From assembly GCA_963771355.1 (NCBI GenBank), contig CAVYTA010000006.1, positions 544,001 through 608,000 on the forward strand: a DNA stretch of 64,000 nucleotides. Direction: 5' to 3'. The notes beneath the pieces are model-generated. The model saw only the letters and a list, made by a program, of their open reading frames with translations. It was not told the origin of the DNA and made no database searches. Within the stretch, counting starts at the first letter, position 1; each line of letters begins with the position of its first letter. The DNA is from an uncultured Candidatus Rokubacteria bacterium (lineage in GTDB: Bacteria > Methylomirabilota > Methylomirabilia > Rokubacteriales > CSP1-6). Both the position numbers and the translations under genes were made by a program. Shown here in pieces: positions 34,177-59,487 of the stretch.

Positions 34177-35535
<1,359 letters not shown>

Positions 35536-36077: not shown

Positions 36078-36124
36078 TGCCTAGCGCCGAGGCATTTCCC
36101 GGACGGGTGCCCAATCTGTGTGCA
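36078..36124. promoter_or_regulatory. Tandem 17-bp NtrC-like enhancer boxes upstream of glnK
   Basis: TGCCTAGCGCCGAGGCA (36078) and TGCCCAATCTGTGTGCA (36108), 30 bp apart. Confidence 0.7.
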
Positions 36125-36157
36125 GGGATCGCCCCCTCCGCTTCTCGCATCGCCCTG

Positions 36158-36576
<419 letters not shown>

Positions 36577-39717: not shown

Positions 39718-39764
39718 TGCCGCTTCGTTAGGCAGACCTGCCGAAGGTGCCGCGCCCGTGAGCA
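39718..39764. promoter_or_regulatory. Tandem 17-bp enhancer boxes upstream of the porin gene
   Basis: TGCCGCTTCGTTAGGCA (39718) and TGCCGCGCCCGTGAGCA (39748), 30 bp apart. Confidence 0.6.
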
Positions 39765-39968
39765 ATCCGTCGTGCCGGCCCGCGCGTCTCGCGCGCCGCC
39801 TGCGGATGCTGGACGGCGTGCCGGATCGCCATTCCCGGACGATTGCGGCTGCCTAAGTGCGCGCCATTACGAATTGGTGGCGGAGAAATCCGGCGAGGGA
39901 ATCGACGGGCCGGGGCCAGGCGACGCGCACGCCGGCCCCGATTCCAGCAGGGGCCGGGACGCCATCCC

Positions 39969-41360: not shown

Positions 41361-41473
41361 TGCTCAGACGCTCGGCGCCCTCTGCTGAGATGCCTGGCGC
41401 CTGAGCAGCCGGCTCACTGACCGCCTGCTAATGCCCCGATTTCCCGTTCGCCCCCCTTGGCATCGCCCTTGCT
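41361..41473 (+). promoter_or_regulatory. Enhancer boxes, IHF-like site and sigma-54 promoter of the ANTAR gene
   Basis: TGCTCAGACGCTCGGCG (41361), TGCCTGGCGCCTGAGCA (41391); one-mismatch IHF site 41429-41441; TTGGCATCGCCCTTGCT (41457-41473). Confidence 0.75.
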
Positions 41474-42088: not shown

Positions 42089-42203
42089 TGCTCGCTTCTT
42101 CAGCAAGCGCGCCCGGCTGCCTGTTCCTGAGGCAGTCGGGCCCCCGCCTCTCCCGCGCAATTGCTTGAAAAGGCTTACCTACGGGTAAGGCATACCCCTT
42201 GCT
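42089..42203 (+). promoter_or_regulatory. Enhancer boxes, IHF-like site and sigma-54 promoter of the urt-ure operon
   Basis: TGCTCGCTTCTTCAGCA (42089), TGCCTGTTCCTGAGGCA (42118); one-mismatch IHF site 42158-42170; AGGCATACCCCTTGCT (GG 42189-90, GC 42201-02). Confidence 0.75.
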
Positions 42204-42299: not shown

Positions 42300-43595
42300 A
42301 TGCAGGGTGTGACGAGGCGGGACTTCCTCAGGACGGCGGCGGTGGTCGGGGCGGGCACGGCGGCGGGCATCGGCTTTCCGTCGGTTCTCCGGGCCCAGGG
42401 TGGAACGGTGAAGGTGGGCGTGCTGCACTCGCTCTCCGGCACCATGGCCATCAGCGAGGTGTCGCTCCGCGACGTCTGCATGATGGCGTTCGACGAGATC
42501 AACGCCAAGGGCGGGGTCATGGGCAAGAAGATCGAGCCGGTGGTGGTGGACCCCGCCTCGAACTGGGACCTCTTCGCGGAGAAGGCGAAGCAGCTCCTCC
42601 TGCAGGACAAGGTGGCGGTGACCTTCGGCTGCTGGACCTCGGTGAGCCGCAAGTCGGTGCTGCCGGTGTTCGAGAACAACAACGGCCTGCTCTTCTATCC
42701 TGTGCAGTACGAGGGCGAGGAGTGCTCGAAGAACGTCTTCTACACGGGCGCCACGCCGAACCAGCAGCTGATCCCGGCGGCGGAGTACCTGATGTCGAAG
42801 GAGGGCGGGGGTTACAAGAAGTTCTACCTGCTCGGCACCGATTACGTCTTCCCGCGCACCGCCAACAAGATCCTGCGCGCGTTCCTGCTCGCCAAGGGCA
42901 TTCCCGCGGACTCCATCGCGGAGGAGTACACGCCGTTCAATCACCAGGACTATCAGACGATTGTCGGCAAGATCAAGCGCTTCGCCTCCGGCGGGAACGC
43001 CGCCGTGCTCTCCACCATCAACGGCGACTCCAACGTGCCCTTCTACAAGGAGTTCTCGAACCAGGGCCTGCGCTCCGAGAACGCGCCCATCATGGCCTTC
43101 AGCGTGGCCGAGGACGAGCTGCGGGGCATGGACACCTCGGCGCTGGTCGGCCACCTCGCCGCCTGGAACTACTACCAGTCCGTTTCCACGCCCCAGAACA
43201 AGACCTTCGTCAACAGCTTCAAGGCCTACGCCAAGAAGGCCAATCTGCCCGGCGGCGACAAGCGCGTCACCGACGATCCGATGGAAGCGGCCTATTTCGG
43301 CGTCTATATCTGGAAGCAGGCGGTGGAGAAGGCCAAGTCCTTCGAGGTGGACGCCGTCCGCAAGGCGGTGTACGGCCAGGAGTTCCTCGCGCCCGGCGGC
43401 AAGATCAAGATGGACGAGGCCAACCACCACACCTACAAGCCGGTGCTCATCGGCGAGATCCTCAAGGACGGCCAGTTCAAGGTGGTCTCCCGCTCCAGGG
43501 GCCTGGTGAAGGCCGAGCCGTGGAGCATGTACACGAGCCCCGACAAGGGGTGCGACTGGGTGAAGGAGAAGGGCACGTACACCAAGAAGGCCTGA
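42300..43595 (+). CDS. urtA: Urea ABC transporter substrate-binding protein (Tat signal)
   Basis: TRRDFL; VKVGVLHSLSGTMAISE, FGCWTSVSRKSVLPVFE, YPVQYEG, GTDYVFPRTANK. Confidence 0.95.
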   Translation: MQGVTRRDFLRTAAVVGAGTAAGIGFPSVLRAQGGTVKVGVLHSLSGTMAISEVSLRDVCMMAFDEINAKGGVMGKKIEPVVVDPASNWDLFAEKAKQLLLQDKVAVTFGCWTSVSRKSVLPVFENNNGLLFYPVQYEGEECSKNVFYTGATPNQQLIPAAEYLMSKEGGGYKKFYLLGTDYVFPRTANKILRAFLLAKGIPADSIAEEYTPFNHQDYQTIVGKIKRFASGGNAAVLSTINGDSNVPFYKEFSNQGLRSENAPIMAFSVAEDELRGMDTSALVGHLAAWNYYQSVSTPQNKTFVNSFKAYAKKANLPGGDKRVTDDPMEAAYFGVYIWKQAVEKAKSFEVDAVRKAVYGQEFLAPGGKIKMDEANHHTYKPVLIGEILKDGQFKVVSRSRGLVKAEPWSMYTSPDKGCDWVKEKGTYTKKA

Positions 43596-43612
43596 GCCAC
43601 GGATCCACGCCT

Positions 43613-45304
43613 GTGGTGAAGCACATCCTGCTGGTGCTCATGCTGCTGTCGGGGCTCGCCGCCCCGGCAGCGGCGCAGGGCCCGGCATCGGTCGCGCCGC
43701 CTCCCGAGATCGCGAAGGCCATCGCCGAGGTCGCCTCGGGCGACGGCGCGGTCCAGGAGGCGGCGGCGGTGGCGCTCGGCAAGACCCGCGACCGCAAGAT
43801 CCTCCCCCTCCTCGAGGCGCTGCGCGAAGGCAGCGTCATGGTCCGATCTCTGCCGGGCGGGAAAAAAGAGACCGTCATCGTCGGAGACAAGGTGAGCGAG
43901 GGCGACAAGACCCTCGTGCCGCTGTTCACCGCCTACGGGAAGGAGCCGATCCTCGCGCCCGGCGGCAAGCCGTTGTTGATGGAGCTCTCGACGCTGGAGG
44001 AAGTCGCCACCGGACGCAGCCTGCGGCTGGCGATCCGTCCGCTCATCGACGCCTTCTCCGGTAATACCCAGCTCGCGGACGCGGACTGGACCGTGCGCAA
44101 GTCGGCCGCCACCAAGATGGGCAACTCGGGCGATCCCTCGGCACTGCCGGCGCTCAGCGAGGCGCTGGCCAAGGAGAAGGACCGCTGGGTGCGCTACGAG
44201 CTCGAGCAGGCTGTCGCGCTGATCCGGCTCAAGGCGGGGTCCGACGCGGAGCGCACGGCGGCGGCGACGGCGCTGGGGGATCTCGGCAGCGCCGATGCCC
44301 TGGACCGGCTGCGGGACGTCGCCGCGGACGGGGCGGCGCCCGCCGCGCTCCGGCAGGCGGCGGCGGCGTCCATGAAGCGGGTGGAGCGCTGGGCGCTGCT
44401 GACCTCGACCATCCAGACAGGCTTCCAGGGCCTGTCCCTGGGCTCCATTCTGCTGCTGATGGCGCTGGGCCTGGCCATCGTGTTCGGGCTCATGGGCGTC
44501 ATCAACATGGCGCACGGTGAGCTCATGGCCCTGGGCGCCTATGCCACCTTCGTGACCCAGGGCCTGTTCCAGCTGCATGCCCCGGGAGCCTTCGACTACT
44601 ACTTCCTGGTGGCGCTCCCGCTGTCCTTCCTGGTGTCGGCCGCCGCCGGCCTCGCGCTGGAGCGCGGGGTCATCCGCTTCCTCTACGGCCGGCCGCTGGA
44701 GACCCTGCTCCTCACCTGGGGCGTGAGCCTCATGATCCAGCAGGGGCTCCGGCTCTGGTTCGGCGCCGCCAACGTGGACGTCATCTCACCCCGGTGGCTA
44801 TCGGGCGGGATCCCGGTGATGATCGGCGTGCAGCTGCCCTACAACCGCCTCTTCATCATCGGCCTCGCGGCGGTGGCGGTGGCGGCCATGTACGTGCTCC
44901 TCTTCTGGACCAGCGCGGGCCTGCGCATCCGCGCCGTCACCCAGAATCGCGGGATGGCAGCCTGCCTCGGCGTCCGCTCGCGGCGCGTGGACGCGCTTAC
45001 CTTCGCGATGGGGGCAGGGCTGGCCGGCATCGCCGGCTGCGCGCTCACCCAGATCGGCAACGTGGGCCCCGAGCTTGGCCAGAACTACATCGTGGATTCC
45101 TTCATGGTGGTGGTGACGGGCGGAGTCGGGAAGCTCGCCGGCACCATCTTCGCCGCCGCGGGCATCGGCGGGCTCAACAAGATCATCGAGCCGGGGCTGG
45201 GGGCGGTGTTCGGCAAGGTGGCCATCCTCGTCGCCGTCATCCTCTTCATCCAGCGGCGCCCGTCCGGGCTCTTCGCGGCGAAGGGGCGCTATGCGGACTC
45301 GTGA
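43613..45304 (+). CDS. urtB: Urea ABC permease with N-terminal HEAT-like periplasmic domain
   Basis: GLAIVFGLMGVINMAHGE, LYGRPLETLLLTWG, GQNYIVDSFMVVV. Confidence 0.93.
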   Translation: MVKHILLVLMLLSGLAAPAAAQGPASVAPPPEIAKAIAEVASGDGAVQEAAAVALGKTRDRKILPLLEALREGSVMVRSLPGGKKETVIVGDKVSEGDKTLVPLFTAYGKEPILAPGGKPLLMELSTLEEVATGRSLRLAIRPLIDAFSGNTQLADADWTVRKSAATKMGNSGDPSALPALSEALAKEKDRWVRYELEQAVALIRLKAGSDAERTAAATALGDLGSADALDRLRDVAADGAAPAALRQAAAASMKRVERWALLTSTIQTGFQGLSLGSILLLMALGLAIVFGLMGVINMAHGELMALGAYATFVTQGLFQLHAPGAFDYYFLVALPLSFLVSAAAGLALERGVIRFLYGRPLETLLLTWGVSLMIQQGLRLWFGAANVDVISPRWLSGGIPVMIGVQLPYNRLFIIGLAAVAVAAMYVLLFWTSAGLRIRAVTQNRGMAACLGVRSRRVDALTFAMGAGLAGIAGCALTQIGNVGPELGQNYIVDSFMVVVTGGVGKLAGTIFAAAGIGGLNKIIEPGLGAVFGKVAILVAVILFIQRRPSGLFAAKGRYADS

Positions 45305-46442
45305 GCGCTGGCTGTACCTGTCGGCGGCGCTCCTGGTGGTGGTGGCGCTGCCCGTGCTCAACATGCTTCCCAAGGGCTCACCGCTCCACGTCTCCGACTT
45401 CACCCTGAACCTGTTCGGCAAGTTCGTCACCTACGCCATTCTCGCCCTCGGGATCGACCTCATCTGGGGCTATGCCGGCGTGCTGTCACTGGGCCACGGC
45501 GTCTTCTTCGGCCTGGGCGCCTACGCCATGGGCATGCACCTCATGCTGGAGATCGGCACCCAGAGCGTGTACCGGAACGTGCTCCCGGACTTCATGGTCT
45601 GGAACCGCGTCATCGAGCTGCCGCTGTTCTGGAAGCCGTTCTACAGCGTGCCCTTCACCCTCCTGGCGGTGGTGGCGGTGCCCGGCCTGGTGGCGCTCCT
45701 ATTCGGCTTTCTGACCTTCCGGAGCCGCATCCGGGGCGTCTACTTCTCCATCATCACTCAGGCCCTGGCCCTCTGCGCGTGGCTGACCTTCAACCGCAAC
45801 GCCATGAATCTCGGGGGCACCAACGGGCTCTCGGGGTTCAAGACGATATTCGGCTTCTCCCTCAATGACCCCGGCACCCAGCGCGGCCTCTACGTGGCGA
45901 GCGCGCTCTGCCTCTGCGCGGCGTTCCTGCTCTGTCGCTGGATCGTCCGCTCGCCGGCAGGCAAGGTGCTGGTGGCCATCCGGGACAGCGAGACGCGCGT
46001 GCTCTTCTGCGGGTACTCGCCCGCCGCCTTCAAGGTCTTCGTCTTCACCGTCTCGGCGGTCCTGGCCGGCGTGGCGGGCGCGCTCTACGTGGGCCAGGTG
46101 GGCATCATCACTCCGGCGCGTATCGGCGTCCTGCCCTCGATCGAGATGATCATCTGGGTGGCGGTGGGGGGCCGGGGAACGCTGCTGGGCCCCGTGGTGG
46201 GCGCGGTGGGCGTGAACTGGCTGCAGAGCCTGCTCACCACGCACTACCCGGATCTCTGGCTGCTCGTCCTGGGCGGGATGTTCGTGACGGTGGTGCTTTT
46301 CTTCCCCGACGGCGTGGTGGGGACGATTCAGAAGCTCGCGGCGCGGTTCCGGAGGGTCGGCGGCGAGCCGGAAGGGGCGAGGAGGGAGCGGGCGCCCCTG
46401 CTGGCCCAGTCTCCGCCACCGGCGAGGAAGCCTCAGTCATGA
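45291..46442 (+). CDS. urtC: Urea ABC permease
   Basis: DLIWGYAGVLSLGHG, PDFMVW, FRSRIRGVYFSIITQAL. Confidence 0.95.
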   Translation: MRTRERWLYLSAALLVVVALPVLNMLPKGSPLHVSDFTLNLFGKFVTYAILALGIDLIWGYAGVLSLGHGVFFGLGAYAMGMHLMLEIGTQSVYRNVLPDFMVWNRVIELPLFWKPFYSVPFTLLAVVAVPGLVALLFGFLTFRSRIRGVYFSIITQALALCAWLTFNRNAMNLGGTNGLSGFKTIFGFSLNDPGTQRGLYVASALCLCAAFLLCRWIVRSPAGKVLVAIRDSETRVLFCGYSPAAFKVFVFTVSAVLAGVAGALYVGQVGIITPARIGVLPSIEMIIWVAVGGRGTLLGPVVGAVGVNWLQSLLTTHYPDLWLLVLGGMFVTVVLFFPDGVVGTIQKLAARFRRVGGEPEGARRERAPLLAQSPPPARKPQS

Positions 46443-47221
46443 CCGTCAACGCCGCGGCGCAAGGGTCGATCATCTACCTGGAGGACGTCACCGTCGAGTA
46501 CGACGGCTTCAAGGCGCTCAACGCGCTGAACTTCTTCATGGACTACAAGGAGCTCCGCGTGGTGATCGGGCCCAACGGAGCGGGGAAGACCACGCTCCTG
46601 GACGTGATCACGGGCAAGGTCCAACCCTCGGCGGGCCGGGTGATATTCGGAAAGAGGACCGAGCTCACGGGGCGGCGCGAGAACGAGATCGCTGGGCTCG
46701 GGGTGGGACGCAAGTTCCAGACGCCGTCCATCTTCGCCAACCTCACGGTGCGAGAGAACCTGGAGCTCGCGCTGGGACGCAAGAGCCGCGGCGTGCTGGC
46801 CACCCTCCGAGCGCGGCTCGACGGCGACCAGCGCGCGCGAGTGGACACCGCCCTCGAAAGCATCGGCCTCGCCGCGGAGGCCGAGACCCGCGCGGGCGGC
46901 CTGTCGCACGGGCAGAAGCAGTGGCTCGAGATCGGCATGGTCATGGTCCAGGATGCGGAGCTGCTCCTTGTGGACGAGCCGGTGGCGGGCATGACCGATG
47001 AAGAGACGGAGAAAACCGGTCTCTTGCTGGAGTCGGTGTCCCGGGAGCGCGCGGTGCTCGTCATCGAGCACGACATGGAGTTCGTCCGCCGCATCGCGCG
47101 CACGGTGACCGTGCTGCACGAGGGCAGCGTGCTCTGCGAGGGCCCGGTGGACCAGGTCCAGCAGGACGAGCGAGTGCTGGAGGTCTACCTGGGGCGGAGC
47201 CGGGACGCCTCGCATGCTTGA
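46439..47221 (+). CDS. urtD: Urea ABC ATP-binding protein
   Basis: GPNGAGKT, GRKFQTP, LSHGQKQWLEIGM, DEPVAGMT. Confidence 0.95.
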   Translation: MTVNAAAQGSIIYLEDVTVEYDGFKALNALNFFMDYKELRVVIGPNGAGKTTLLDVITGKVQPSAGRVIFGKRTELTGRRENEIAGLGVGRKFQTPSIFANLTVRENLELALGRKSRGVLATLRARLDGDQRARVDTALESIGLAAEAETRAGGLSHGQKQWLEIGMVMVQDAELLLVDEPVAGMTDEETEKTGLLLESVSRERAVLVIEHDMEFVRRIARTVTVLHEGSVLCEGPVDQVQQDERVLEVYLGRSRDASHA

Positions 47222-47912
47222 CATCCAGGGGCTCGACGTCGCCTACGGCGAGAGCCAGGTGCTCTGGGACGTCTCCCTCACCGTGCCGGCGGGCGGCGTG
47301 GTCTGCCTCATGGGCCGAAACGGGGTGGGAAAGACCACCTTGCTCAAGACCATCATGGGTCTCCTGCGTCCCCGGTCCGGGCGCATCGTCTTCGACGGGA
47401 TCGACTTGGCCGGCCGGAGGTCCGAGGAGCGGTCCGCGTGTGGGATCGGGTATGTGCCTCAGGGCCGCGAGATCTTCCCCAACCTCACCGTGGCCGAGAA
47501 CCTGCGGGTGGGGGCGATGGGGCGGAGCCGGGGACAGGCCGCCGGCGACGACCTGGATGAGATCTTCGCGCTTTTCCCCAAGCTCAAGCAGCTGCTGGGG
47601 CGCAAGGGCGGCGTGCTTTCGGGCGGCGAGCAGCAGCAGCTCGCCATCGGCCGCGTGCTCCTGGCCCGGCCCAAGCTCCTCCTCATGGACGAGCCCACCG
47701 AGGGAATACAGCCGAATGTGATCCTCCAGATCGAGGACGCCATCGAGCGCATCAAGCAGCGCGGCATCGCGGTGCTCCTCGTCGAGCAGTACCTGGAGTT
47801 CGCGTGGCGCCTCGCCGGCTCCTATGCCATCATGCGCAAGGGCGCCATCGTGGCCCAGGGCGGTACCGCCGACCTGCGCACCGACGTGGTCCGCCAGCAT
47901 CTGACCGTCTAG
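47214..47912 (+). CDS. urtE: Urea ABC ATP-binding protein
   Basis: [40 protein letters not shown]. Confidence 0.95.
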
Positions 47913-47956
47913 CCCGAGCATCCGAGAGGATCGATGACGCTCCGCCGGCCGATCCC

Positions 47957-48259
47957 GTGCATCTGACTCCCCGCGAGCAGGACAAGCTCCTCATCTTCGT
48001 CGCCGCCGAGGTGGCGCGCCGGCGTCGCGGGCGCGGGCTCAAGCTGAACCATCCCGAAGCGATGGCGCTGATCACCGCCGAGATCCTGGAAGGGATACGC
48101 GACGGCCGCTCCGTCTCCGACCTGATGTCGTTCGGGACCACCATCCTCGCCCGCGGTGACGTGATGGAGGGCGTGCCCGAGATGCTCGACGAGGTCCAGG
48201 TCGAGGGGACCTTCCCCGACGGAACCAAGCTGGTCACCGTGCACCACCCCATCCGATGA
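47957..48259 (+). CDS. ureA: Urease gamma subunit
   Basis: [38 protein letters not shown]. Confidence 0.97.
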
Positions 48260-48353
48260 GTGGGCACGGGCTCGTGCATTTACCATCAGCGGGGGCCCAG
48301 AAATGGCCCCCGCTCTCCCCCAGACGGCGGACAACGCTATGGCGGACATTGCG

Positions 48354-48737
48354 ATGATTCCTGGTGAGTATCTTCTCGGAGAGGGCGACATCGACGCCAA
48401 TGTGGGGCGGAAGACGGTTCAGGTGACGGTGGCGAATACGGGGGATCGGCCCATCCAGGTGGGCTCGCACTTCCACTTCTTCGAGGCCAATCGCGAGCTG
48501 CGGTTCGACCGCGCGCGGGCCTTCGGGATGCGGCTCAATATCCCCGCCGGCACCGCGGTGCGATTCGAGCCGGGCGACGAGAAGGCGGTGACCCTCGTCG
48601 AGCTGGCCGGCGCGCGGGAAGTGCACGGCCTCAACGGACTCACCAACGGGCCCGCCGGTGACGGCACCCGGGCCGCCGCCCTCGAGCGGGCGGCGCGGGA
48701 AGGCTTCAAGGGAGCGGGGCCGGGAGCGGCCGGATGA
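48354..48737 (+). CDS. ureB: Urease beta subunit
   Basis: [34 protein letters not shown]. Confidence 0.97.
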
Positions 48738-50449
48738 CCCTCCGCATCCCGCGCCGGCAGTACGCGGACCTGTTCGGTCCCACCGTGGGGGACCGGGTGC
48801 GCCTGGCCGATACCGAGCTCCTCATCGAGGTGGAGCGCGACTTCACCGTATACGGCGACGAGGTGAAGTTCGGCGGCGGCAAGGTGATCCGCGACGGTAT
48901 GGGGCAGTCGGCCCGGGCGGTGGCCGCCGATGGCGTCCTGGATCTCGTGATCACCAATGCGCTGATTCTCGACCACTGGGGCATCGTGAAGGCCGATATC
49001 GGCGTGCGCGGCGGCCGTATCGTGGGGGTGGGCAAGGCGGGAAACCCCGACATCATGGCGGGAGTGACCGCGGGCATGGTGATCGGCGCCTCCACCGAGG
49101 TGATCGCCGGCGAGGGGCGCATCGTCACCGCGGGCGGCATCGACAGCCATATCCACTTCATCTGTCCGCAGCTCGTGGACGAAGCGCTGGCGGCCGGCCT
49201 CACCACCCTCATCGGCGGTGGCACCGGCCCCGCCACCGGTACCAATGCCACCACGTGCGCGTCCGGGGCCTGGAATATCCACCGCATGCTCGAGGCCGCC
49301 GAGGGCCTGCCCATCAATCTGGGCTTTCTCGCCAAGGGCAATGCCTCGCGTCCCGATCCGCTGCGCGAACAGGTGGCGGCGGGCGCCATCGGGCTCAAGC
49401 TGCACGAGGACTGGGGCACCACGCCGGCCGCCATCGACAACTGCCTCTCCGTGGCCGAAGAGACGGATACGCAGGTGGCCATCCACACCGACACGCTGAA
49501 CGAGGCCGGCTTCGTGGAGACGTCCATCCAGGCGTTCAAGGGACGGACCATCCACACCTATCACACCGAGGGGGCGGGCGGCGGGCATGCCCCCGACATC
49601 CTCCGCGTGTGCGGCGAGGTGAACTGTCTCCCGTCCTCCACCAACCCCACCATGCCGTTCACGGTGAACACCATGGACGAGCACCTCGACATGCTCATGG
49701 TGTGCCATCACCTGAACCCCAAGATCCCCGAGGACCTGGCCTTCGCGGAGTCGCGCATCCGCGCCGAGACCATCGCCGCCGAGGACGTTCTCCACGATCT
49801 CGGCGCCATCAGCATGCTCTCGTCCGACTCGCAGGCCATGGGGCGGATCGCGGAAGTGATCATGCGAACCTGGCAGACGGCGGACAAGATGAAGCGCCAG
49901 CGCGGCGCGCTGCCCGGTGACGGTCGCGCCGACAACCAGCGCGCCAAGCGCTACGTGGCGAAATACACCATCAATCCGGCCATCTCGCACGGCATCAGCC
50001 ACGAGGTGGGCTCGATCGAGGCGGGCAAGCTCGCCGACCTCGTGATCTGGAAGCCGGCCTTCTTCGGCGTCAAACCCGAGATGGTGGTCAAGGGCGGCCT
50101 CATCGTGACCGCGGCGATGGGCGATCCCAATGCCTCGATCCCGACGCCGCAGCCGGTGCGCTATCGCCCGATGTTCGCCGCCTATGGCCGCGCCATCGGC
50201 TCCACCTCGCTGACCTTCGTATCGCGCGCGGCGCTGGAGGCGGAGGTGCCGGCGCGCCTCGGGCTCGGCAAGCGGGTGAGCGCGGTACGCGGCTGCCGCG
50301 GCCTCACCAAGGCGGCCATGGTCCACAACAGCTACGTGCCCCGCATGGAAGTCGACGCGGAGACCTACGAGGTGCGGGCCGACGGTCAGCTCCTCACCTG
50401 TGAGCCCGCCTCGGTGCTGCCGATGGCGCAGCGGTACTTCCTCTTCTAG
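48734..50449 (+). CDS. ureC: Urease alpha subunit
   Basis: [35 protein letters not shown]. Confidence 0.98.
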
Positions 50450-50455
50450 GGCTCC

Positions 50456-50899
50456 ATGCTGGTGATCACCGAATCGCCCCTGCCGGTGGAGCCGGCGGCG
50501 CTGGCCGGCCTCGAGCGCGACACCCTGTCGCTCACGTGGGAAGAGCGGCGCTGGACGCGCAAGCGGGTGCGCAGCACGGCCGGGCGCGAGGTGGCGCTGG
50601 CGCTGCCGACGGGCAGCTTGCTGCGGCCGGGGGATGTGCTCGCGCGCGGGGCGGGCTGGTACCTGGTGGTGGAGGGCCGTCCGGAGCCGGTGCTCGCGGT
50701 ATTCCCGCGGGACCGCGCGGAGGCCATCCGCATCGCCTTCGAGGTGGGCAACCGACACTTCTCGCTCGCCCTCGAGGGCGAGGGCATCCTGGTTCCGGAC
50801 GATACCGCCATGGAGCAGCTCCTCATCCGGCTCGGCGTCGCGTGGAAGCGGCGGGAAGCGATCTATGATCCCCTCGGCGCCGCGCCGCATCCGCACTGA
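50456..50899 (+). CDS. ureE: Urease accessory protein UreE
   Basis: [15 protein letters not shown], short HPH tail. Confidence 0.88.
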
Positions 50900-50905
50900 C
50901 CGCGC

Positions 50906-51598
50906 GTGATGCTCGATCCCGCGCTCCTCCCGCTGCTGCACTTGACGGATACCGCGCTTCCCACCGGCGGCTACGCGCACTCGTTCGGCCTGGAAACCTA
51001 CTGTCAGGACGGCCGGGTCACCGACGCCGAGTCGCTCGGCGACTTTCTCGCCATGCATCTCGAGGGTGCGACGGGTCCCGGCGATGCCACCGCCGCGGTG
51101 GCGGCGCGGCGCCGCTTCCTCGCCGGCGACATCGGCGGCTGCGCGGGGCTCGACGCCACGCTCGAGGCGATGAAACCGGCCCGCGAGCTGCGCGAGGCGA
51201 GCCGGCAGATGGGGCGCCAGACGCTGCGGGTGGCGGGCGCTCTCACCGGACATCCCGCGCTCATCGGCTACCTGGCCGACGTGGACGCCGGGCGCGCCGC
51301 CGGACACCACGGGGTGGCCTTCGGCATGGCGGCGGGCGCGCTGGGCGTGGCGGATGGCTCGGTGGCCGCGGCGTATCTCTACTCGTCCACGTCCCTCCTC
51401 GTGGGCGCCGCGCAGCGGCTCATGCGGCTGGGACAGCTCGAGGGACAGCGGGTGCTCTGGCTCCTACATCCCTTGATCGCGCGGGTGGCGGCGGAGGCCA
51501 CTGCGCGCGACGCCGCGGACATGTGGAGCTGGGCACCCGGGCTCGAGCTGGCGAGCATCCGCCACGCGGGACTCGACGCGAGGCTCTTCCGCTCATGA
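50906..51598 (+). CDS. ureF: Urease accessory protein UreF
   Basis: [17 protein letters not shown]-terminal RLFRS. Confidence 0.93.
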
Positions 51599-52233
51599 GC
51601 GCGGCGCTGGCGGCCAAGACGACGCTCCCGCGCCCGCTCAAGATCGGCATTGGCGGGCCGGTGGGCTCGGGGAAGACCGCGCTGGTGGAGCGGCTCTCGC
51701 GGCTCCTCAAGGAGCGCTACGATCTGGCCGTCATCACCAACGACATCTACACCCAGGAAGACGCGCAGTTCCTCGTCCGGCGCGGCGTCTTGCCCGCCGA
51801 GCGTGTGATCGGCGTGGAGACGGGCGGCTGTCCGCATACCGCCATCCGGGAAGATGCGTCCGTGAATCTCGAGGCGGTGCATCAGCTCCGGGGGCGCTTT
51901 CCCGGCCTCGAGCTGCTTTTCGTGGAGAGCGGCGGCGACAACCTGGCGGCGACCTTCAGTCCCGAGCTGGTGGACGCGACGATCTACGTGATCGACGTGG
52001 CGGAGGGCGACAAGATTCCCCGCAAGGGCGGGCCGGGCATCACGCGCTCGGATCTTCTCGTGATCAACAAGATCGACCTCGCCCCCTACGTGGGCGCGGA
52101 CCTGGCGGTCATGGAGCGCGACGCCAAGCGGATGAGAGGAGGCCGGCCGTTTGTCTTCAGCAATCTCCGTGACGGCGAGGGGGCCCAGGCCATCGCCGAT
52201 TGGATCCGCCGGGAGCTCCTCTTCGAGCCCTGA
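51595..52233 (+). CDS. ureG: Urease accessory GTPase UreG
   Basis: [33 protein letters not shown]. Confidence 0.97.
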
Positions 52234-53092
52234 GGCAGCCCGCCGCGTCGGACGCGACGGCCTGATCTCCCTGGGCTTCGAGCGGCGCGGCGGCCGGACC
52301 GTGCTCACCGAGCGTCGCTCCGCGCTCCCGCTCCAGGTGCTGGAGCCCATGGAGCTCGAGCCAGGGGTGGCCGCCCTGATGCTGCTGAATCCCACCGGCG
52401 GCGTGGTCGGCGGCGACCGGCTTCACACCGAGGTACGGCTGGGCGCGCGGAGCCATGCCTGCCTGACCACGCCCTCGGCCACCCGGGTCTACCGCAGCGC
52501 GGGCCCGCCCTCGGTGCTGACCTTCCGCGCGACCCTGGATTCGGGCGCCCGGCTCGAATACGTGCCCGACCATTTGATCCCGTCTCCCGGCGCGCGGGCG
52601 CGCCAGTCCACCGAGCTGGTGCTGGCACCGGGAGCCACGGCCCTCGTGCTCGATGCCTGGTCGGTGGGGCGGCCCGCCCGCGGCGAGCGGTGGGCCTTCG
52701 CCGAGCTGGATCTCGCGCTTGGCGTGTCGGATGCCGACGGTCCCATCCTCCGGGAGCGGGCCTGTCTCGGCGGCCGCCGCTCCTGGGAGGGGCTGGGCGG
52801 CGCGGAGGGTCACGCCTACATCGCGACCTTTGCCGCCGTGGGTGCCGCCGCGCAAACGGATCCGACTGGAGGGGAACCGCAGTGGGAGGCCCTCGCAGCT
52901 GAGCTGACGGCGCGCGCAGCGGAGCTCACCGCCGGAGTGCGCGTCGGCGTCAGCGCTCTGGGTCGCGGCGGCGTGCTCGCGCGGGTCCTGGCGCGCTCCG
53001 CGCCGGCTCTGCTGGAGGCGACCGATGCCCTCTGGGCCGCGAGCCGGCGGCGGCTGTATGGGCTTCCCCCGCTGCCCTTGCGGAAGCTCTAG
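52151..53092 (+). CDS. ureD: Urease accessory protein UreD (start uncertain)
   Basis: [42 protein letters not shown] end. Confidence 0.88.
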
Positions 53093-53168
53093 GGGCCGCG
53101 GGGGTCTCAGGCTCCTGTGATAGCCTGCGCGGAGCCAGCATGACGCCTCATGAAGAAGGAGCAGGCGA

Positions 53169-53369
53169 ATGATCTCGTCCCCGCCGTCCGACGGAGAAGG
53201 GATGATGCGCTACGCGGAGCACGCGGCCGCGGCCATCGGTCTGCCCCTCGACCCCGCGCGGAAGGCGGCGGTGGTGCAGCACCTCGCCGTGATGCTCGCC
53301 GCCACCACGCTGGTGCTCGAGTTTCCGCTGCCGGACGAGGTCGAGGCCGCGCCGGTGTTCGAGCCGTGA
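53169..53369 (+). CDS. AtzG/HpxX-like small amidase partner (DUF4089-like)
   Basis: GLPLDP...LEFPLPDEVEAAPVFEP; overlaps amidase start. Confidence 0.75.
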   Translation: MISSPPSDGEGMMRYAEHAAAAIGLPLDPARKAAVVQHLAVMLAATTLVLEFPLPDEVEAAPVFEP

Positions 53370-54772
53370 CGCCGCCGCCGAGTCCGGCGACGCTCGCGGC
53401 GCTCGACGCCGTCGGCACCGCCGAGGCGGTCCGCGCCGGTCGGCTCGGCGCCCGCGACGCCGTGGAGGCCGCGCTGGCGCGAATCGCTTCGCTGGACCCC
53501 GCGCTCAACTGCTTCACCGCGGTGCTCGCGGACACGGCCCGCCGTGACGCGGAGGCGGTCGACGCGCGGGTGGCGCGCGGCGAGGATCCCGGCCTGCTCG
53601 CGGGGGTGCCCTTCGCGGTCAAGAACCTCTTCGACGTGGCGGGGCTCACGACGCTGGCCGGCTCGCGCATTCATGCGTCGCGCCCACCCGCGGCGCGGGA
53701 TGCCGCCGCCGTCGCCGCCCTGCGACGGGCGGGGGCCGTGCTGGTGGGCACGCTGAACATGGACGAGTACGCGTTCGGCTTCACCACCGAGAACAGCCAC
53801 TACGGTCCCACGCGCAATCCCCATGACCGGGAGCGGGTGGCGGGCGGCTCCTCGGGCGGCTCGGGCGCGGCGGTGGGCGCGGGGCTGGTGCCGCTCACGC
53901 TCGGCTCTGACACCAATGGGTCGATCCGCGTGCCCGCCTCCCTGTGCGGGGTGTTCGGGCTCAAGCCCACCTATGGCCGCGTCTCGCGGGCAGGGACCGC
54001 GCTCTTCGCAGGGAGCTTCGACCACGTGGGGCCGCTCGCGCGATCGACCCGCGACCTTGCCGCCGCCCTCGACGCGCTGCAGGGCCCGGACGCCGGTGAT
54101 CCGGTGGCGAGCCGCCGCCCCGCCGAGCCCTGCCGCCTCGAGCTCACGCGCGGGATCGCGGGGCTCCGCTTCGCGGTGGCCGACGGCCACTTCGCGCGCG
54201 GGGGCGAGCCGGCGGCGCTCGCCGCGGTGGGAGCGGTGGCGGAGGCGCTGGGCGCGCGGGACACCGTGACCCTGCCGGAGGCGCATCGCGCGCGCGCCGC
54301 CGCCATGATCATCACCGCGGCGGAGGGGGCGCAGCTCCATCTGCCGGATCTCCGGTCGCGGCCCGAGGAGTTCGACCCGTTGACCCGGGACCGGTTCCTC
54401 GCCGGCGCCCTCCTTCCCGCCACCGCCTACGTGGCGGCGCAGCGCTTCCGCGCGTGGTATCGCGCCCGAGTCGCCGAGCTCTTCGAGGGGATCGACGTCA
54501 TTCTCGCGCCCACCACGCCGTACCCGGCGCCCCGTATCGGCCAGGAGCGGATCACGGTGGCGGGGGCGGAGGTTCCGATGCGACCGACGCTCGGACTCTA
54601 TACCCAGCCGCTGTCCTTCATCGGGCTGCCCGTGATCACGGTGCCGCTGGCGCGGCAGTCCGGATTGCCGCTGGGCGTCCAGCTCGTCGCGGCGCCCTTT
54701 CGCGAGTCCTTCCTGCTGCGCACCGCCCACTATCTCGAGTCGGCCGGCGTGGTCGCGGCTCCCATCGCCTGA
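53366..54772 (+). CDS. AtzE/HpxY-family amidase (amidase signature)
   Basis: VKNLFDVAGLTTLAGS, NMDEYAFGFTTEN, GGSSGGS, GSDTNGSIRVP. Confidence 0.9.
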   Translation: MTPPPSPATLAALDAVGTAEAVRAGRLGARDAVEAALARIASLDPALNCFTAVLADTARRDAEAVDARVARGEDPGLLAGVPFAVKNLFDVAGLTTLAGSRIHASRPPAARDAAAVAALRRAGAVLVGTLNMDEYAFGFTTENSHYGPTRNPHDRERVAGGSSGGSGAAVGAGLVPLTLGSDTNGSIRVPASLCGVFGLKPTYGRVSRAGTALFAGSFDHVGPLARSTRDLAAALDALQGPDAGDPVASRRPAEPCRLELTRGIAGLRFAVADGHFARGGEPAALAAVGAVAEALGARDTVTLPEAHRARAAAMIITAAEGAQLHLPDLRSRPEEFDPLTRDRFLAGALLPATAYVAAQRFRAWYRARVAELFEGIDVILAPTTPYPAPRIGQERITVAGAEVPMRPTLGLYTQPLSFIGLPVITVPLARQSGLPLGVQLVAAPFRESFLLRTAHYLESAGVVAAPIA

Positions 54773-54781
54773 GCCATCCAC

Positions 54782-54817
54782 CAGCGACGCAGCCCCGTGC
54801 AGCGACGCAGCCCCGTG
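54782..54817 (+). repeat. Perfect 18-bp tandem duplication
   Basis: CAGCGACGCAGCCCCGTG twice, just before the SD of the next gene. Confidence 0.9.
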
Positions 54818-54828
54818 AGGAGGAAGCA

Positions 54829-55212
54829 GTGGACCTGAACATTCCCGAGGTCGTGGCCGAGGTCGGCGCCGCGTTCAACCGCTACGAGGCCGCGCTCACC
54901 ACCAACGATGTCCCCGCGCTGGACAGCTTCTTCTGGAACGACCCGCGCGTGATCCGCTTTTCGCTGTCCGACAATGGCTACGGCTTCGAGGCCATCATGA
55001 AGGCGCGGCGTGCGCGCAACAACGTGGACCTTCGGCGCCGGCTCATGCGCACCGTGGTCACCACCTTCGGCCGGGACTTCGCCACCGTGAACACCGAGTT
55101 CAAGCGGGAGGACTCCGGGCGCGAGGGACGGCAGAGCCAGACCTGGGTGCGGACCGCGGAGGGCTGGAAGGTCGTGAGCGCGCACGTGTCGTGGCTGACG
55201 CCGCCGTCCTGA
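54829..55212 (+). CDS. AtzH/HpxZ-like protein (DUF3225, NTF2-like)
   Basis: FNRYEAALTTNDV, LDSFFW, TFGRDFAT, GRQSQTWVR, SAHVS. Confidence 0.88.
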   Translation: MDLNIPEVVAEVGAAFNRYEAALTTNDVPALDSFFWNDPRVIRFSLSDNGYGFEAIMKARRARNNVDLRRRLMRTVVTTFGRDFATVNTEFKREDSGREGRQSQTWVRTAEGWKVVSAHVSWLTPPS

Positions 55213-55219
55213 CCCTTCC

Positions 55220-55332
55220 TGCACAAGATACGGGCTCCCTGCTGATCTCTTGAGCAGACGGCGGTACCCGTCTTACCACCATCCCGCCAAGCGGCTGATT
55301 TACTGAGCCTCCCCCTCGGCACATTGTTTGCT
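55220..55332 (+). promoter_or_regulatory. Enhancer boxes, IHF site and sigma-54 promoter of the stand-alone HTH gene
   Basis: TGCACAAGATACGGGCT (55220), TGCTGATCTCTTGAGCA (55240); IHF match 55288-55300 (minus AATCAGCCGCTTG); CGGCACATTGTTTGCT (GG 55318-19). Confidence 0.7.
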
Positions 55333-55376
55333 CCGGACTTCCAACACAGGACCGGATCGGAAAGGGAGCGGATAGC

Positions 55377-55658
55377 ATGAACGGAATCGAGCTGGCCGGT
55401 GAATTCGAACGGCTCGTGGTGAGCGCGCTGCCCGCGCTCGTGCGGGAAGAGGGAGCCACGGACCGGGGACGCCTCTATCGCGCGGTCATGGCGCGGGTCG
55501 AGCTTCCACTGCTGCGGCATGTGCTGCAGCTGTCGGGGGGCAATCAGCTGAAGGCGGCGCGGCTGCTGGGAATCAATCGCAATACCCTCCGGAAGCGGCT
55601 GCGCGTGCTCGGGCTCCTCCCCGCGGCGCCCAGCCCGAATGGATCGGGGCGCGGCTAG
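55377..55658 (+). CDS. Stand-alone Fis/NtrC-type helix-turn-helix protein
   Basis: LYRAVMARVELPLL...GGNQLKAARLLGINRNTLRKRL; 93 aa, no REC or AAA+ domain. Confidence 0.85.
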   Translation: MNGIELAGEFERLVVSALPALVREEGATDRGRLYRAVMARVELPLLRHVLQLSGGNQLKAARLLGINRNTLRKRLRVLGLLPAAPSPNGSGRG

Positions 55659-55708
55659 CGCGGCATCCATCTGGCTGTTGCGGTGAGTCGGCGGTACACT
55701 CCGGGATC

Positions 55709-56773
55709 GTGCGCACCCGCCTCGCTCCCCCCCTTCACGCGCTCGTCGTCGGGCTGAGTCTGCTCGCGCTGGGCTGCGCTGGCGTGGGCAATGAGCCCTT
55801 GCCGGGCGCGCCCGCCCATCACGTCGCGGGCGGATTCCGGAATGTCGATCCGACCTATCCGCGCGCCGGCGGCTGGGCCCGCTTCAAGTTCATCGTGAGT
55901 CGGTTCTGGGATAGCCTGCTCTCCCCACGCAACTTCGAAACCCCGCGGGAGACGGTCGAGGGCCTGGCGGCGGGGCGCGCGCTTCGCGCCGGGCCGGATC
56001 CCACTGTGACCTGGATCGGCCACGCCACGGTGTTACTGCGCATGGACGGGTTGACCCTCCTCACCGACCCCAGCTGGAGCGAGCGGGCCAGCCCGCTGTC
56101 CTGGGCGGGTCCGCGTCGGCTGGTGCCGCCGGGACTGCCCTTCGAGGAGCTGCCGCGGGTGGACGTGGTCGTGATCTCGCACGATCACTACGACCATCTG
56201 GACCTCGCCACCGTGAAGCGGCTGGCCGCGGCGCACGATCCGCTCTTCGTGGTGCCGCTGGGCCTCAAGGCCTGGTTCGCCGACAACGGCATCACCCGCG
56301 TCGAGGAGCGCGACTGGTGGCAGCGGGTAGAGCATCGAGGTGTCACCTTCGTCTGCGTGCCCGCGCAGCACTTCTCGCAGCGCACGCCATGGGATTCGAA
56401 TCGCCGGCTCTGGGCTACGTGGGCGGTGCTCGGTTCCACGCGGCGCTTCTACTTCACCGGCGACACCGGGTACTTCCCGGGCTTCAAGGAGGTGGGCGCG
56501 CGCATGGGTCCATTCGATCTCGCAGCGGTCGCCATCGGCGCCTATCTCCCCCCGGAGATCATGCGCGCGGTGCACGTGACGCCCGAGGAAGCGGTGCAGC
56601 TGGCGGAGGACGTCCGCGCGCGCGTGCTGCTCGGCATTCACTGGGGCACCTTCGACCTCGCCGAGGAGCCGCTGGGGGAGCCGCCCGAGCGGATGCGGGC
56701 AGAGGCGGCGCGCCGGGCCCTCGGGCCCGATCGCGCCTGGATCCTGCGGATCGGCGAGACGCGCCGCTGGTAA
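55709..56773 (+). CDS. MBL-fold metallo-hydrolase (NAPE-PLD/RomA-like), probable lipoprotein
   Basis: TWIGHAT, SHDHYDHLD, FTGDTGY, IHWGTF; LALGC lipobox. Confidence 0.88.
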   Translation: MRTRLAPPLHALVVGLSLLALGCAGVGNEPLPGAPAHHVAGGFRNVDPTYPRAGGWARFKFIVSRFWDSLLSPRNFETPRETVEGLAAGRALRAGPDPTVTWIGHATVLLRMDGLTLLTDPSWSERASPLSWAGPRRLVPPGLPFEELPRVDVVVISHDHYDHLDLATVKRLAAAHDPLFVVPLGLKAWFADNGITRVEERDWWQRVEHRGVTFVCVPAQHFSQRTPWDSNRRLWATWAVLGSTRRFYFTGDTGYFPGFKEVGARMGPFDLAAVAIGAYLPPEIMRAVHVTPEEAVQLAEDVRARVLLGIHWGTFDLAEEPLGEPPERMRAEAARRALGPDRAWILRIGETRRW

Positions 56774-56785
56774 GATGGCCCCGGC

Positions 56786-57475
56786 ATGGCGAGCCGGGTG
56801 CTGGTCGTCGAGGACGAGGCGGACATCCGCGATCTCCTCGCCTTCCATCTCGAGCGTGATGGCTACCAGGTCACCCGCGCGACCACCGGGCCGGAGGCCT
56901 TGCGCCAGCTGCGCGCCGCGCCCCCCGACCTGGTCATCCTCGATCTCATGCTCCCGGAGCTGGACGGGCTCGAGGTGTGCCGGCGGCTCCGCGCGGACCC
57001 GGCCACGGCCACCCTGCCCGTGATCATGCTCACCGCCAAGGGAGACGAGGTGGACCGGGTGGTCGGTCTCGAGCTGGGCGCCGACGACTACGTGGTCAAG
57101 CCGTTCTCGCCCAAGGAGATGCTGGCGCGCGTGCGGGCGGTGCTCCGGCGGGCGCGCACGCCGCTCTCGGGCGCGCCGCTGGCGGTGGGCGGCATCACGC
57201 TGGACGGCGCCACCCATCAGGCCACCGTGTCGGAGCGGCCGCTGACGCTCACGCCCAAGGAGTTCGATCTCCTCCGCGCGCTCCTCGAGGCGCGCGGGCG
57301 CGTGCTCTCGCGCGAGTTCCTCCTCGACCGCGTCTGGGGCTATGCGCGGGCCGGCGAGATCGAGTCGCGGACGGTGGACGTCCACGTGCGCCGGCTGCGT
57401 GCCAAGCTCGGGCCCGAGGGGGAGCGCATCCTCACCGTGAAGAACGTGGGCTACCGGCTGGCCCCGGACGCCTGA
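56786..57475 (+). CDS. phoB: PhoB/OmpR-family response regulator
   Basis: VVEDE, ILDLMLP, GADDYVVKPFS, RTVDVHVRRLR; precedes phoR-like kinase and phoD. Confidence 0.85.
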   Translation: MASRVLVVEDEADIRDLLAFHLERDGYQVTRATTGPEALRQLRAAPPDLVILDLMLPELDGLEVCRRLRADPATATLPVIMLTAKGDEVDRVVGLELGADDYVVKPFSPKEMLARVRAVLRRARTPLSGAPLAVGGITLDGATHQATVSERPLTLTPKEFDLLRALLEARGRVLSREFLLDRVWGYARAGEIESRTVDVHVRRLRAKLGPEGERILTVKNVGYRLAPDA

Positions 57476-57477
57476 GC

Positions 57478-59307
57478 GTGCGGAGGCTCCTGCTCTTTCT
57501 CCGCCGCCGTATCGCGCTGAAGCTCACGCTGACCCTGGTGGGCTTCACCGCCATCGCCGGGCTCGCGGCGGCGCTGTACCTCAATCACGCGCTGGAGGCC
57601 TACGCGGTGGAGTCGCTGGAGGCCCGCCTGGTGGCGCTCGAGCGCGTGCTCCACGACGAGGCGCGCGATCTCCTGCGCGGCCCGGCCCCGGAAGCGGTCC
57701 GGCAGGCCTTCGCCCAGCGGGCGGCGCGCGCCACCGGCGCCCGCGTGACCTTGATCCGGCCCGACGGCCGTGTGGTGGCGGACTCGGACGCACGGCCGGG
57801 TGGTCTCGCCGGCATGGAGAGCCACGGCGACCGCCCGGAAGTGCGCGCAGCGCTCGCCGGCCGGGTCGGCCGTGACCTGCGCATCAGCAGCACGCTCGAG
57901 ACGCCGCTGCTCTATGTCGCCTCCCCCGCGCGCGATGGGGACCGGATCGTCGGCGTAATGCGGCTGGCCTTGCCGCTCACCGAGGTGACCGCCTCCCACG
58001 AAAACGTGCATCGGGTGATGCTGGTGGGCGGGCTGCTGGCCCTCGCGGTGGCGCTCGGCATCGGCCTCTTCGTGTCGGGAAGGGTGACGCGCCCGGTGGT
58101 CGAGATGCAGTCCATCGCCCGCCAGCTCAGCGAGGGCAACTTCGCCGTGCGCGCCCCCGTGCACTCCCCGGACGAGATCGGCACCCTCGGCCGCTCCCTC
58201 AACGTGCTCGCCGCCCGGCTCCGCGAGAAGATCCAGGACCTCGCGCAAGAGCAGGCCAAGGTCACCGCCATCCTCGACGGCATGGTGGAGGGCGTGATCG
58301 CGGTGGACGGCCACGATCACATCCTGCTCATGAACGAGCGGGCGCGCGCCATGTTCAACCTGGGATCGGGCCGCCTGGAGCGAAAACCGTTCCTGGAAGT
58401 GATCCGCAACGCCGATCTCCACGACGTGTTTCGCGAGGGGCGCGCGGCGGGGATCGAGGTGGCGGGAGACGGGGCGGCGGTCCGACGCGAGCTCCGGCTG
58501 TCCACTCCGGTCGAGCGGATCTTGCAGGTCCACGCCGTCCCCCTTCGTCTGGGCCCCGGCGAGACCGGCGTGGCCATGGTGCTCCACGACATCACCGCGC
58601 TCCGCCAGCTCGAGCAGGTCCGGACCGAGTTCGTGGCCAATGTCTCGCACGAGCTCCGGACGCCCCTCACCGCGATCCAGGGATACCTGGAGACCCTCCT
58701 CGGGGGGGCGATGGACGATCCCGCGCATGCCCGGCGCTTTCTCGAGGTGGTGTTCCGGCATACCGAGCGGCTGGGCCGCCTGCTCAACGACCTCACCGAT
58801 CTGTCCAATATCGAGCTGGGCCGGGTCTCGCTGCAGCGGGGGCCGGTCGCGCTCGGGGAAGTGGTGGACGGCACGCTGGACATCATCCGCGCCAAGGCCG
58901 ACGCGGGCGGGGTGAGGCTGGAGGCGCGGCTGCCCGCAGAGCTGCCCGCCGTCCAGGCGGATCGCGACCGCCTCGCCCAGATCCTCATCAACCTCGTGGA
59001 CAATGCCGTCAAGTACACGCCGCGTGGCGGGCAGGTGGCGGTGGAGGCGGCGGCGGGAGAGGGCCTGGTGGAGGTGGCGGTGGTCGATACCGGCGTCGGC
59101 ATCCCGCCCGCGGACCTGCCCCGCATCACGGAGCGTTTCTACAGAGTGGACCGGGCGCGCTCGCGGGAGCTCGGCGGGACCGGGCTCGGGCTCGCCATCG
59201 TCAAGCATCTGGTCGCCGCGCACGGCGGCACCCTCGTCATCGAGAGCCGTCCCGGCGAGGGTACCCGGGTGCGCGTCACGCTGCCCGCCGCGCCGCCGCC
59301 GGCCTGA
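57478..59307 (+). CDS. phoR: PhoR-like sensor histidine kinase (TM, HAMP, PAS, HisKA, HATPase)
   Basis: EFVANVSHELRTPLT, NLVDNAVKY, ERFYRVDRARSRELGGTGLGLAIVKH. Confidence 0.88.
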   Translation: MRRLLLFLRRRIALKLTLTLVGFTAIAGLAAALYLNHALEAYAVESLEARLVALERVLHDEARDLLRGPAPEAVRQAFAQRAARATGARVTLIRPDGRVVADSDARPGGLAGMESHGDRPEVRAALAGRVGRDLRISSTLETPLLYVASPARDGDRIVGVMRLALPLTEVTASHENVHRVMLVGGLLALAVALGIGLFVSGRVTRPVVEMQSIARQLSEGNFAVRAPVHSPDEIGTLGRSLNVLAARLREKIQDLAQEQAKVTAILDGMVEGVIAVDGHDHILLMNERARAMFNLGSGRLERKPFLEVIRNADLHDVFREGRAAGIEVAGDGAAVRRELRLSTPVERILQVHAVPLRLGPGETGVAMVLHDITALRQLEQVRTEFVANVSHELRTPLTAIQGYLETLLGGAMDDPAHARRFLEVVFRHTERLGRLLNDLTDLSNIELGRVSLQRGPVALGEVVDGTLDIIRAKADAGGVRLEARLPAELPAVQADRDRLAQILINLVDNAVKYTPRGGQVAVEAAAGEGLVEVAVVDTGVGIPPADLPRITERFYRVDRARSRELGGTGLGLAIVKHLVAAHGGTLVIESRPGEGTRVRVTLPAAPPPA

Positions 59308-59487
59308 GGTCCTGCGTCACGGTCGAAGCGGGCGCTGGCGATACACGCACGCCGGCATCAACCGCTCGGCAAAGGCCAGGCCCACGGAGAGTCAGGAGCC
59401 GCAGGCGAGGTGGGCCACCCTCGTCATGCGGAGAACCGCCGGCGGAATCATCGCCGCGTGATCGCACGTTGATGGGAGGATCACACC

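Follow-up and report, generated by a model that had tools for sequence, protein, structure and literature searches.

We describe a stand-alone DNA-binding protein of 93 residues (hereafter, the mini-protein) from an uncultured Rokubacteria bacterium. Its fold is a known one and its place in a predicted nitrogen regulon appears well supported; the direction of its effect is a proposal. On balance, we think it probable that the mini-protein is induced by the nitrogen activator NtrC and competes with NtrC for the enhancer boxes, acting as a delayed feedback brake. Since the protein cannot activate sigma-54 transcription, seems to be made under NtrC control and has no strong predicted sites beyond the NtrC enhancers, a brake is the simplest role to assign to it. 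The proposal starts from observations on the reading frame, the modeled fold, selection, promoter anatomy, the recognition helix shared with NtrC and the restriction of tandem boxes to the nitrogen locus. The window, meaning the whole 64,000-nucleotide stretch analyzed (contig C6 of genome G000, 544001-608000), contains a 19-kb nitrogen cluster that the mini-protein gene closes. The cluster comprises glnK, amtB, glnA, a BBP2 porin gene, a receiver-ANTAR regulator gene, the genes for a urea ABC transporter and urease, and AtzG-, AtzE- and AtzH-like genes (Table 1). The names glnK, glnA, urt and ure follow sequence resemblance and are presumptive; the Atz names, including that of the AtzH-like gene preceding the mini-protein gene, rest on the annotation made in this analysis.

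Table 1. Features of the nitrogen cluster and of the mini-protein gene (window coordinates)
Feature	Position	Strand	Remark
Tandem boxes and weaker sigma-54 site before glnK-amtB, glnA next	36078..36200	+	Predicted shared target
Tandem boxes before BBP2 porin gene	39718..39764		No sigma-54 site scored
Boxes (one weak) and sigma-54 site before receiver-ANTAR regulator gene	41361..41473	+	Composite matrix match
Tandem boxes and sigma-54 site before urtA	42089..42203	+	Composite match and box-pair scan
urt ABC transporter, urease, AtzG-like, AtzE amidohydrolase and AtzH-like genes	42300..55212	+	Directly upstream of the promoter below
Distal 17-bp NtrC-type box	55220..55236		98 bp upstream of the -24 GG
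Proximal 17-bp NtrC-type box	55240..55256		78 bp upstream of the -24 GG
IHF-like site	55288..55300		One mismatch to consensus; position conserved in close relatives
Sigma-54 -24/-12 element	55316..55332	+	GG-N10-GC at 55318-55331
Gene for stand-alone Fis-fold DNA-binding protein	55377..55658	+	93 aa; ATG at 55377, stop at 55658

The reading frame given in a preliminary description of this DNA was recovered with the same sequence, and a purine-rich stretch resembling a ribosome-binding site lies 5' of its ATG (55360-55368). HTH_8, at residues 39-76, is the sole Pfam family above its cut-off, and a domain search found neither a receiver nor an AAA+ domain with a GAFTGA loop. The AlphaFold model (mean pLDDT 88.6) has helices at residues 3-28, 33-52, 57-64 and 68-77, corresponding to two N-terminal helices, a helix-turn-helix (HTH) with recognition helix NRNTLRK, and a short basic tail (median net charge +2 in the mini-protein family versus -2 in NtrC). 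The preliminary description had seen a dimerization helix and an HTH only; the HTH is indeed the only recognizable domain, but two helices, not one, precede it. In a Foldseek search of the PDB the best match was E. coli Fis (1fip_A, target TM-score 0.79). Pfam, the model and Foldseek together identify a four-helix Fis fold with HTH_8.

The enhancer boxes, IHF match and -24/-12 promoter initially ascribed to this gene were all located and are conserved in relatives. When ten hand-picked orthologous promoters were aligned (one row starting late), the invariant or near-invariant columns fell almost entirely within the two boxes and the IHF-like and sigma-54 elements; the start codon is conserved along with the promoter. 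The proximal box is the top-scoring intergenic box of the whole genome. The IHF-like match, judged against the consensus, is perfect in two relatives (L035 and L036). A third apparent box (55293-55309) was rejected because it overlaps the IHF-like site and its palindrome is not conserved. Spacing between paired boxes varies among promoters, being either 19-21 or 29-30 bp. Conserved TGC-N11-GCA boxes lie 70-125 bp upstream of -24/-12 elements in a genome that has rpoN, ntrBC and five HU/IHF-family genes; TGC-N11-GCA is the described NtrC motif (PMC10746234). Farther downstream, here and in close relatives, lie a metallo-beta-lactamase-fold gene and a phoB-phoR-like pair (55709-59307); a TACACT hexamer just 5' of 55709 suggests that they may own a promoter. 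Beyond them a phosphatase-like gene, which we presume to resemble PhoD, is split over two frames near 60105-60126 (59469-61067) by a frameshift or an assembly error.

The connection between the mini-protein and NtrC-type control was followed through 80 loci (L032-L111), mostly short-frame top matches and a part of all such matches. Setting aside full-length activators, fragments of other activators and copies without the motif left 65 copies from 63 genomes; upstream DNA is absent in five of these, and 60 are informative. A promoter with boxes and a sigma-54 site precedes 29 of the 60 (25 by a strict pattern and four by matrix, one of the latter lying about 440 bases upstream, across decayed DNA). 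A nitrogen gene lies directly ahead on the same strand in 30 of the 60: the porin gene in 17, a cyanase gene in eight (one of them a remnant), ureD in three and the ANTAR regulator gene in two. Neither feature accompanies one copy, which appears to be broken. These counts carry no p-value since copies from kin are not independent. The promoter is kept beside unrelated genes in three cases (L043, L052 and L055), and some neighbors are decayed fragments (L041, L042). The upstream neighbor thus appears to change freely while the NtrC-type control link persists, and we regard this as our strongest result: with such a promoter or a nitrogen-gene neighbor at 59 of 60 copies, expression would be tied to the regulon wherever the gene is placed. 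The preliminary description held that a dusB-fis type of housekeeping context would speak against its proposal. Nothing of the kind was met among the relatives, dusB being directly upstream in none of the 60 informative copies, and the genome's own dusB has no fis behind it. In one genome (G153, L093) the ANTAR regulator and mini-protein genes are duplicated in tandem, and in another (G015, L048 and L050) two near-identical copies occupy different nitrogen contexts.

It had been anticipated that the true activator might be encoded elsewhere and carry an RNTL helix. This expectation was borne out by comparison with the 23 sigma-54 activators listed for the genome: NRNTLRK occurs in one of them, an NtrC encoded on contig C7 (L001:10024-11457) beside an ntrB-like kinase gene. 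Its best NCBIfam match is ntrC, with 547 bits against a cut-off of 558.6. The pair is intact and sits behind tsaD and other housekeeping genes; Rokubacteriales ntrBC is located behind tsaD. The mini-protein and this NtrC are 64% identical over 44 residues, and every position of NRNTLRK is also the consensus residue among 25 Rokubacteriales NtrC tails. The activator encoded in the window itself (34177-35535) ends in GLRRPTLYSK, as stated in the preliminary description, and was rejected as the cognate because its recognition helix differs. In another sigma-54 activator gene (G000:C6:773640-775129), the HTH and the AAA+ domain are encoded in different frames. The 300 bases before ntrB contain no strong box or sigma-54 site at any of 24 loci (best box score 6.2), where ntrB usually lies inside an operon, and there are no box pairs on contig C7. 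In rhizobia, the dusB-ntrBC operon is autorepressed by NtrC (PMC10746234).

Potential targets were sought genome-wide with matrices for two boxes and a sigma-54 site, trained solely on copies from other genomes. Composite matches numbered four among 5046 upstream regions, against none in 3 x 5046 Markov shuffles. They precede urtA, the mini-protein gene, the ANTAR regulator gene and glnK; the match at the mini-protein gene is partly circular, the training promoters being those of its orthologues, and the other three are independent. Tandem box pairs also number four in the genome. All are intergenic, lying before glnK, the porin gene, urtA and the mini-protein gene, and the scan returned none outside the nitrogen locus. 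Column-permuted matrices (40) gave a mean of 0.6 pairs, and one in 40 reached four; the count is therefore modest and it is the location that carries weight. Because the pairs are confined to the nitrogen locus, the strongest predicted targets of the mini-protein are NtrC's own enhancers. The preliminary description had also considered repression of nitrogen-sufficiency genes; the lack of tandem boxes beyond the locus leaves this idea without support, though single weak sites may exist. The boxes before the porin gene are strong, yet the matrix finds no sigma-54 site there (39718-39866). The glnA gene has no boxes or sigma-54 site of its own, unlike family f4, where 17-bp boxes and a sigma-54 site precede glnA in five of five genomes; among glnK-type loci in families f4, f7 and f11, six of 11 have the same arrangement. 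As no short orthologue was found in those families, the boxes would be NtrC sites independently of the mini-protein gene. These data define a predicted nitrogen regulon for an uncultured soil lineage.

We envision the following sequence of events. Under nitrogen limitation, NtrB and NtrC from contig C7 would activate the mini-protein promoter. The product would dimerize through its two N-terminal helices and bind the boxes at glnK, the porin gene, the ANTAR regulator gene, urtA and its own promoter. Rising amounts of it would displace NtrC and so cap or shorten the response, since 17-bp boxes occupied by a protein unable to activate would yield no activation; pairing with the C-terminal domain of NtrC might offer a second route. 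The mini-protein may in this way supply negative feedback to a system in which ntrBC, without boxes and behind housekeeping genes, apparently cannot repress itself. Several features count against a brake. The basic tail would suit non-specific binding. The helix is changed in 10 of 66 family copies (it is exact in the other 56) and reads NRNTFH in relatives fused to PII. The trees do not place the family inside the genome's NtrC clade, and families outside the organism's own (f1) apparently run the same promoters without a mini-protein. Finally, a second family of HTH-only proteins, described below, has a sigma-54 promoter and no activator with the same helix in this genome, so such proteins need not mirror an activator.

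Nac, a regulator of LysR fold, acts as a relay downstream of NtrC in enterobacteria, and one could imagine that the NtrC-induced mini-protein similarly acts elsewhere, turning sigma-70 promoters down or up by way of single or degenerate sites. The promoter and context counts link its expression to NtrC, NtrC proteins of other bacteria repress through the TGC-N11-GCA motif, and the second family just mentioned has no same-helix activator in this genome. There are also sites that such a relay might use, as 10 of the 17 intergenic single boxes scoring at least 13 genome-wide lie outside the nitrogen locus. However, no function evidently unites these outside boxes, several share TGC/GGCA letters with sigma-54 sites that they overlap, and no tandem boxes lie beyond the locus. 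Moreover, NtrC should bind whatever the mini-protein binds, so a relay would add little. We regard it as unlikely.

The prospects are somewhat poorer for a positive role, in which the mini-protein would bend DNA or hold one box, aiding NtrC assembly or looping. A Fis fold and two boxes per promoter at varying spacing would suit such a helper, but the stretch between boxes and promoter already has a conserved IHF-like site. An activator in need of help might be suspected from the loop sequence, which is GAFTDA in all Rokubacteriales NtrC copies shown versus GAFTGA in 13 of 13 copies from other Methylomirabilia families, and which might weaken activation. Yet family f4 has a GAFTDA NtrC and the same promoters, and no short orthologue was found in it; GAFTDA is, besides, listed among the variants expected to stay active (PMC4641369).

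The relationship to Fis deserves closer consideration. Fis is a broad DNA binder of low specificity and has an N-terminal beta-hairpin arm. Like the beta/gamma Fis proteins (PRK00430, PRK01905; PDB 1ETY, 6M10), the mini-protein is a stand-alone four-helix protein of similar size and has the GNQ..AA..LG.NR.TLRK motif; its scores with the Fis models also exceed that with the ntrC model. Unlike them, it reaches just 58.4 bits against a cut-off of 122 for PRK01905 and 54.4 against 99 for PRK00430, and its model is helical from residue 3, without beta strands, where the title of PDB 1F36 refers to an extended transactivation region of Fis. The dusB-fis operon likewise differs from the sigma-54 promoter with NtrC-type boxes, or the place behind nitrogen genes, that marks the mini-protein. 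Cut-offs, beta arm and dusB context having all given negative answers, we do not class it as Fis. For the same reasons, and given its separation from the Fis clade in trees, we find it improbable that the mini-protein is an independent Fis analogue, a broad binder that reorganizes the chromosome in nitrogen starvation, even though Fis provides its top profile and structure matches, its tail is basic, the genome's dusB lacks a fis and a joint clade with beta/gamma Fis is not rejected. The comparison does correct one point. NRNTLRK had been taken as a mark of alphaproteobacterial NtrC as opposed to Fis, but Fis-type proteins of beta- and gammaproteobacteria carry NRNTLRKK too (L136, L160, L166, L173, L175 and L189, most with dusB-like or purH-like neighbors). 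Because these proteins have the helix too, and Fis binds broadly, helix identity is no proof that the targets are the same.

The mini-protein family forms one clade in a quick tree of 110 rows (SH-aLRT 95), made up of 34 of 66 family copies, 16 of 25 Rokubacteriales NtrC, 13 of 13 other Methylomirabilia NtrC, 20 of 20 outside short proteins and 27 of 56 outside activators, and again in a more careful tree of 58 rows (support 89/83). In both, built on 78 columns, it is separate from beta/gamma Fis and does not fall within Rokubacteriales NtrC. Over the same 78 columns AU tests reject none of three origins, namely with Rokubacteriales NtrC (p = 0.5), with beta/gamma Fis (p = 0.59) or with other Methylomirabilia NtrC (p = 0.71), and placement is biased because the outside sequences were chosen by similarity to the query. 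We claim no donor. In relation to the C-terminal domain of NtrC (TIGR01818 positions 403-461), the mini-protein has a recognition helix identical to that of the genome's NtrC and a predicted 17-bp site in common with it; it differs in being a separate gene product, with no receiver or AAA+ domain and with a diverged first helix.

In the genomes searched, the mini-protein was found in a single Rokubacteria family, f1. A homologue search with the 93-residue protein gave 703 matches, most of the 120 listed being 92-96 residues long. Among the 151 phylum genomes searched, 90 of the 95 other genomes of family f1 had a match, and 62 f1 genomes had two or more by count from the search table. Outside f1, 50 of 55 genomes were matched, 49 of them once. 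The listed matches there sit in open frames of at least 483 residues, and the 14 loci inspected (L112-L125), together with the f4 loci, encode full activators. No short orthologue was found outside f1 in this search, a statement that leaves out a second match in G100, a 79-residue frame in G162 and 59 unlisted table rows. Over a 48-codon core of 64 copies, the median dN/dS is 0.28 (1716 pairs with pS 0.1-0.6, 99.9% of them below 1), and the values fall to 0.04-0.11 between the copy described here and four copies of the same genus. This is a real gene under purifying selection. Contigs assembled from rhizosphere RNA in one study cover it in three of four runs (X1, 55363-55566; X2, 55417-55719; X3, 55242-55491 and 55527-55723). 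One contig crosses the promoter, assembled contigs cannot show transcription and there was no silent control stretch, so this coverage is not counted as evidence of expression. The preliminary description had allowed that the gene might be what is left of a truncated ntrC; two relatives' copies do appear broken (L058, L059) and some neighbors are decayed, but a non-functional remnant is hardly credible in view of the selection, a length of about 92-96 residues kept in many homologues, a single clade spanning the family, a conserved promoter and start codon, and an upstream AtzH-like gene in place of any AAA+ leftover.

The brakes on sigma-54 activators known to us depend on contact between proteins, on small RNA or on autorepression. 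NifL, FleN and HrpV, for example, are anti-activators that contact the activator. In the Ntr system the feedback routes include NtrC autorepression and the small RNA NfeR1 (PMC10746234). All these, like Nac, either curb an enhancer-binding protein's output or relay it. NfeR1, NifL, FleN, HrpV and Nac do so by RNA pairing, activator contact or a LysR fold, whereas the mini-protein would copy the activator's DNA-binding domain. Other stand-alone Fis-fold regulators are NinH of phage lambda (PMC7166090) and Fis1-3 of Legionella; Fis1 and Fis2 are reported to be able to heterodimerize, and the Legionella proteins bind AT-rich motifs (bioRxiv 2024.09.25.615009). Neither text, in the portions compared, ties these proteins to sigma-54 or to the enhancer of a cognate activator. 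Literature searches, which covered few subscription papers, returned no account of the mini-protein family, nor of feedback regulators that consist of an activator's DNA-binding domain standing alone. The phylum goes unmentioned in the main text of PMC12316311, the supplements of which might list these promoters.

The mini-protein may not be the only one of its kind. A second HTH-only gene (G000:C5:768652-768927; L254:4653-4928), with helix GLQRTYL, lies behind a ferredoxin-like gene. Of 36 relatives in f1, 32 have a match, most often in a short frame; the best f4 matches are mostly in long ones. A sigma-54 site is upstream in 24 of 24 loci (L256-L279), and the 18 loci returned by a stricter pattern have 18-bp TGC-N12-GCA boxes and no 17-bp boxes. 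The GLQRTYL helix is absent from the 23 activators listed for the genome. The sole other strong 18-bp box pair genome-wide (G000:C3:81883-81933) precedes a response-regulator-like gene. Members of the mini-protein family are also fused to a PII domain in seven 90%-clusters from metagenomes (P0165, P0276-P0281), with a PII part that lacks the RGFG motif and a helix that reads NRNTFH; P0182 is a looser eighth case. On some of the contigs concerned (L212-L224), siroheme-synthase-like genes precede the fusion gene, and the pattern used gives no sigma-54 site. A search of 251 phylum genomes at E <= 1e-52, run without a positive control, found no such fusion.

Further variations on the theme were encountered among more distant proteins. 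Proteins of about 150-205 residues with two Fis-like domains in tandem (P0141, P0163, P0171, P0178, P0180, P0181, P0188, P0235, P0186 and P0195) are possible single-chain Fis dimers. Four proteins of about 350 residues in myxobacteria-like genomes (L138, L150, L158 and L180) have an NtrC-like tail and no intact AAA+ motifs; a dusB-like gene lies ahead of both annotated members of this set. Short Fis-like frames with NRNTLRKK occur in Alphaproteobacteria and Oligoflexia (L144, L149, L202, L190 and L201), that of L144 being preceded by the end of a dusB-like gene.

It is quite possible, though somewhat less likely than not, that in Rokubacteria, and maybe in other phyla rich in sigma-54, DNA-binding domains of enhancer-binding proteins have more than once been turned into feedback microproteins: each activator would induce a copy of its DNA-binding part, and that copy would then close the activator's enhancers. 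The present family would be a second, independent birth of a Fis-like protein, one that kept NtrC specificity. If this is true, the second family and the PII-fused forms would be evidence of a recurrent design that can also be joined to a nitrogen-sensor domain. A dedicated gene for an activator's DNA-binding domain within the activator's own regulon would represent another type of control, and the mini-protein a portable part for tuning sigma-54 circuits. Fis itself was reportedly proposed by Morett and Bork in 1998 to be a derivative of NtrC. The mini-protein would be a living analogue of that step, and because it comes with predicted binding sites, the idea becomes testable.
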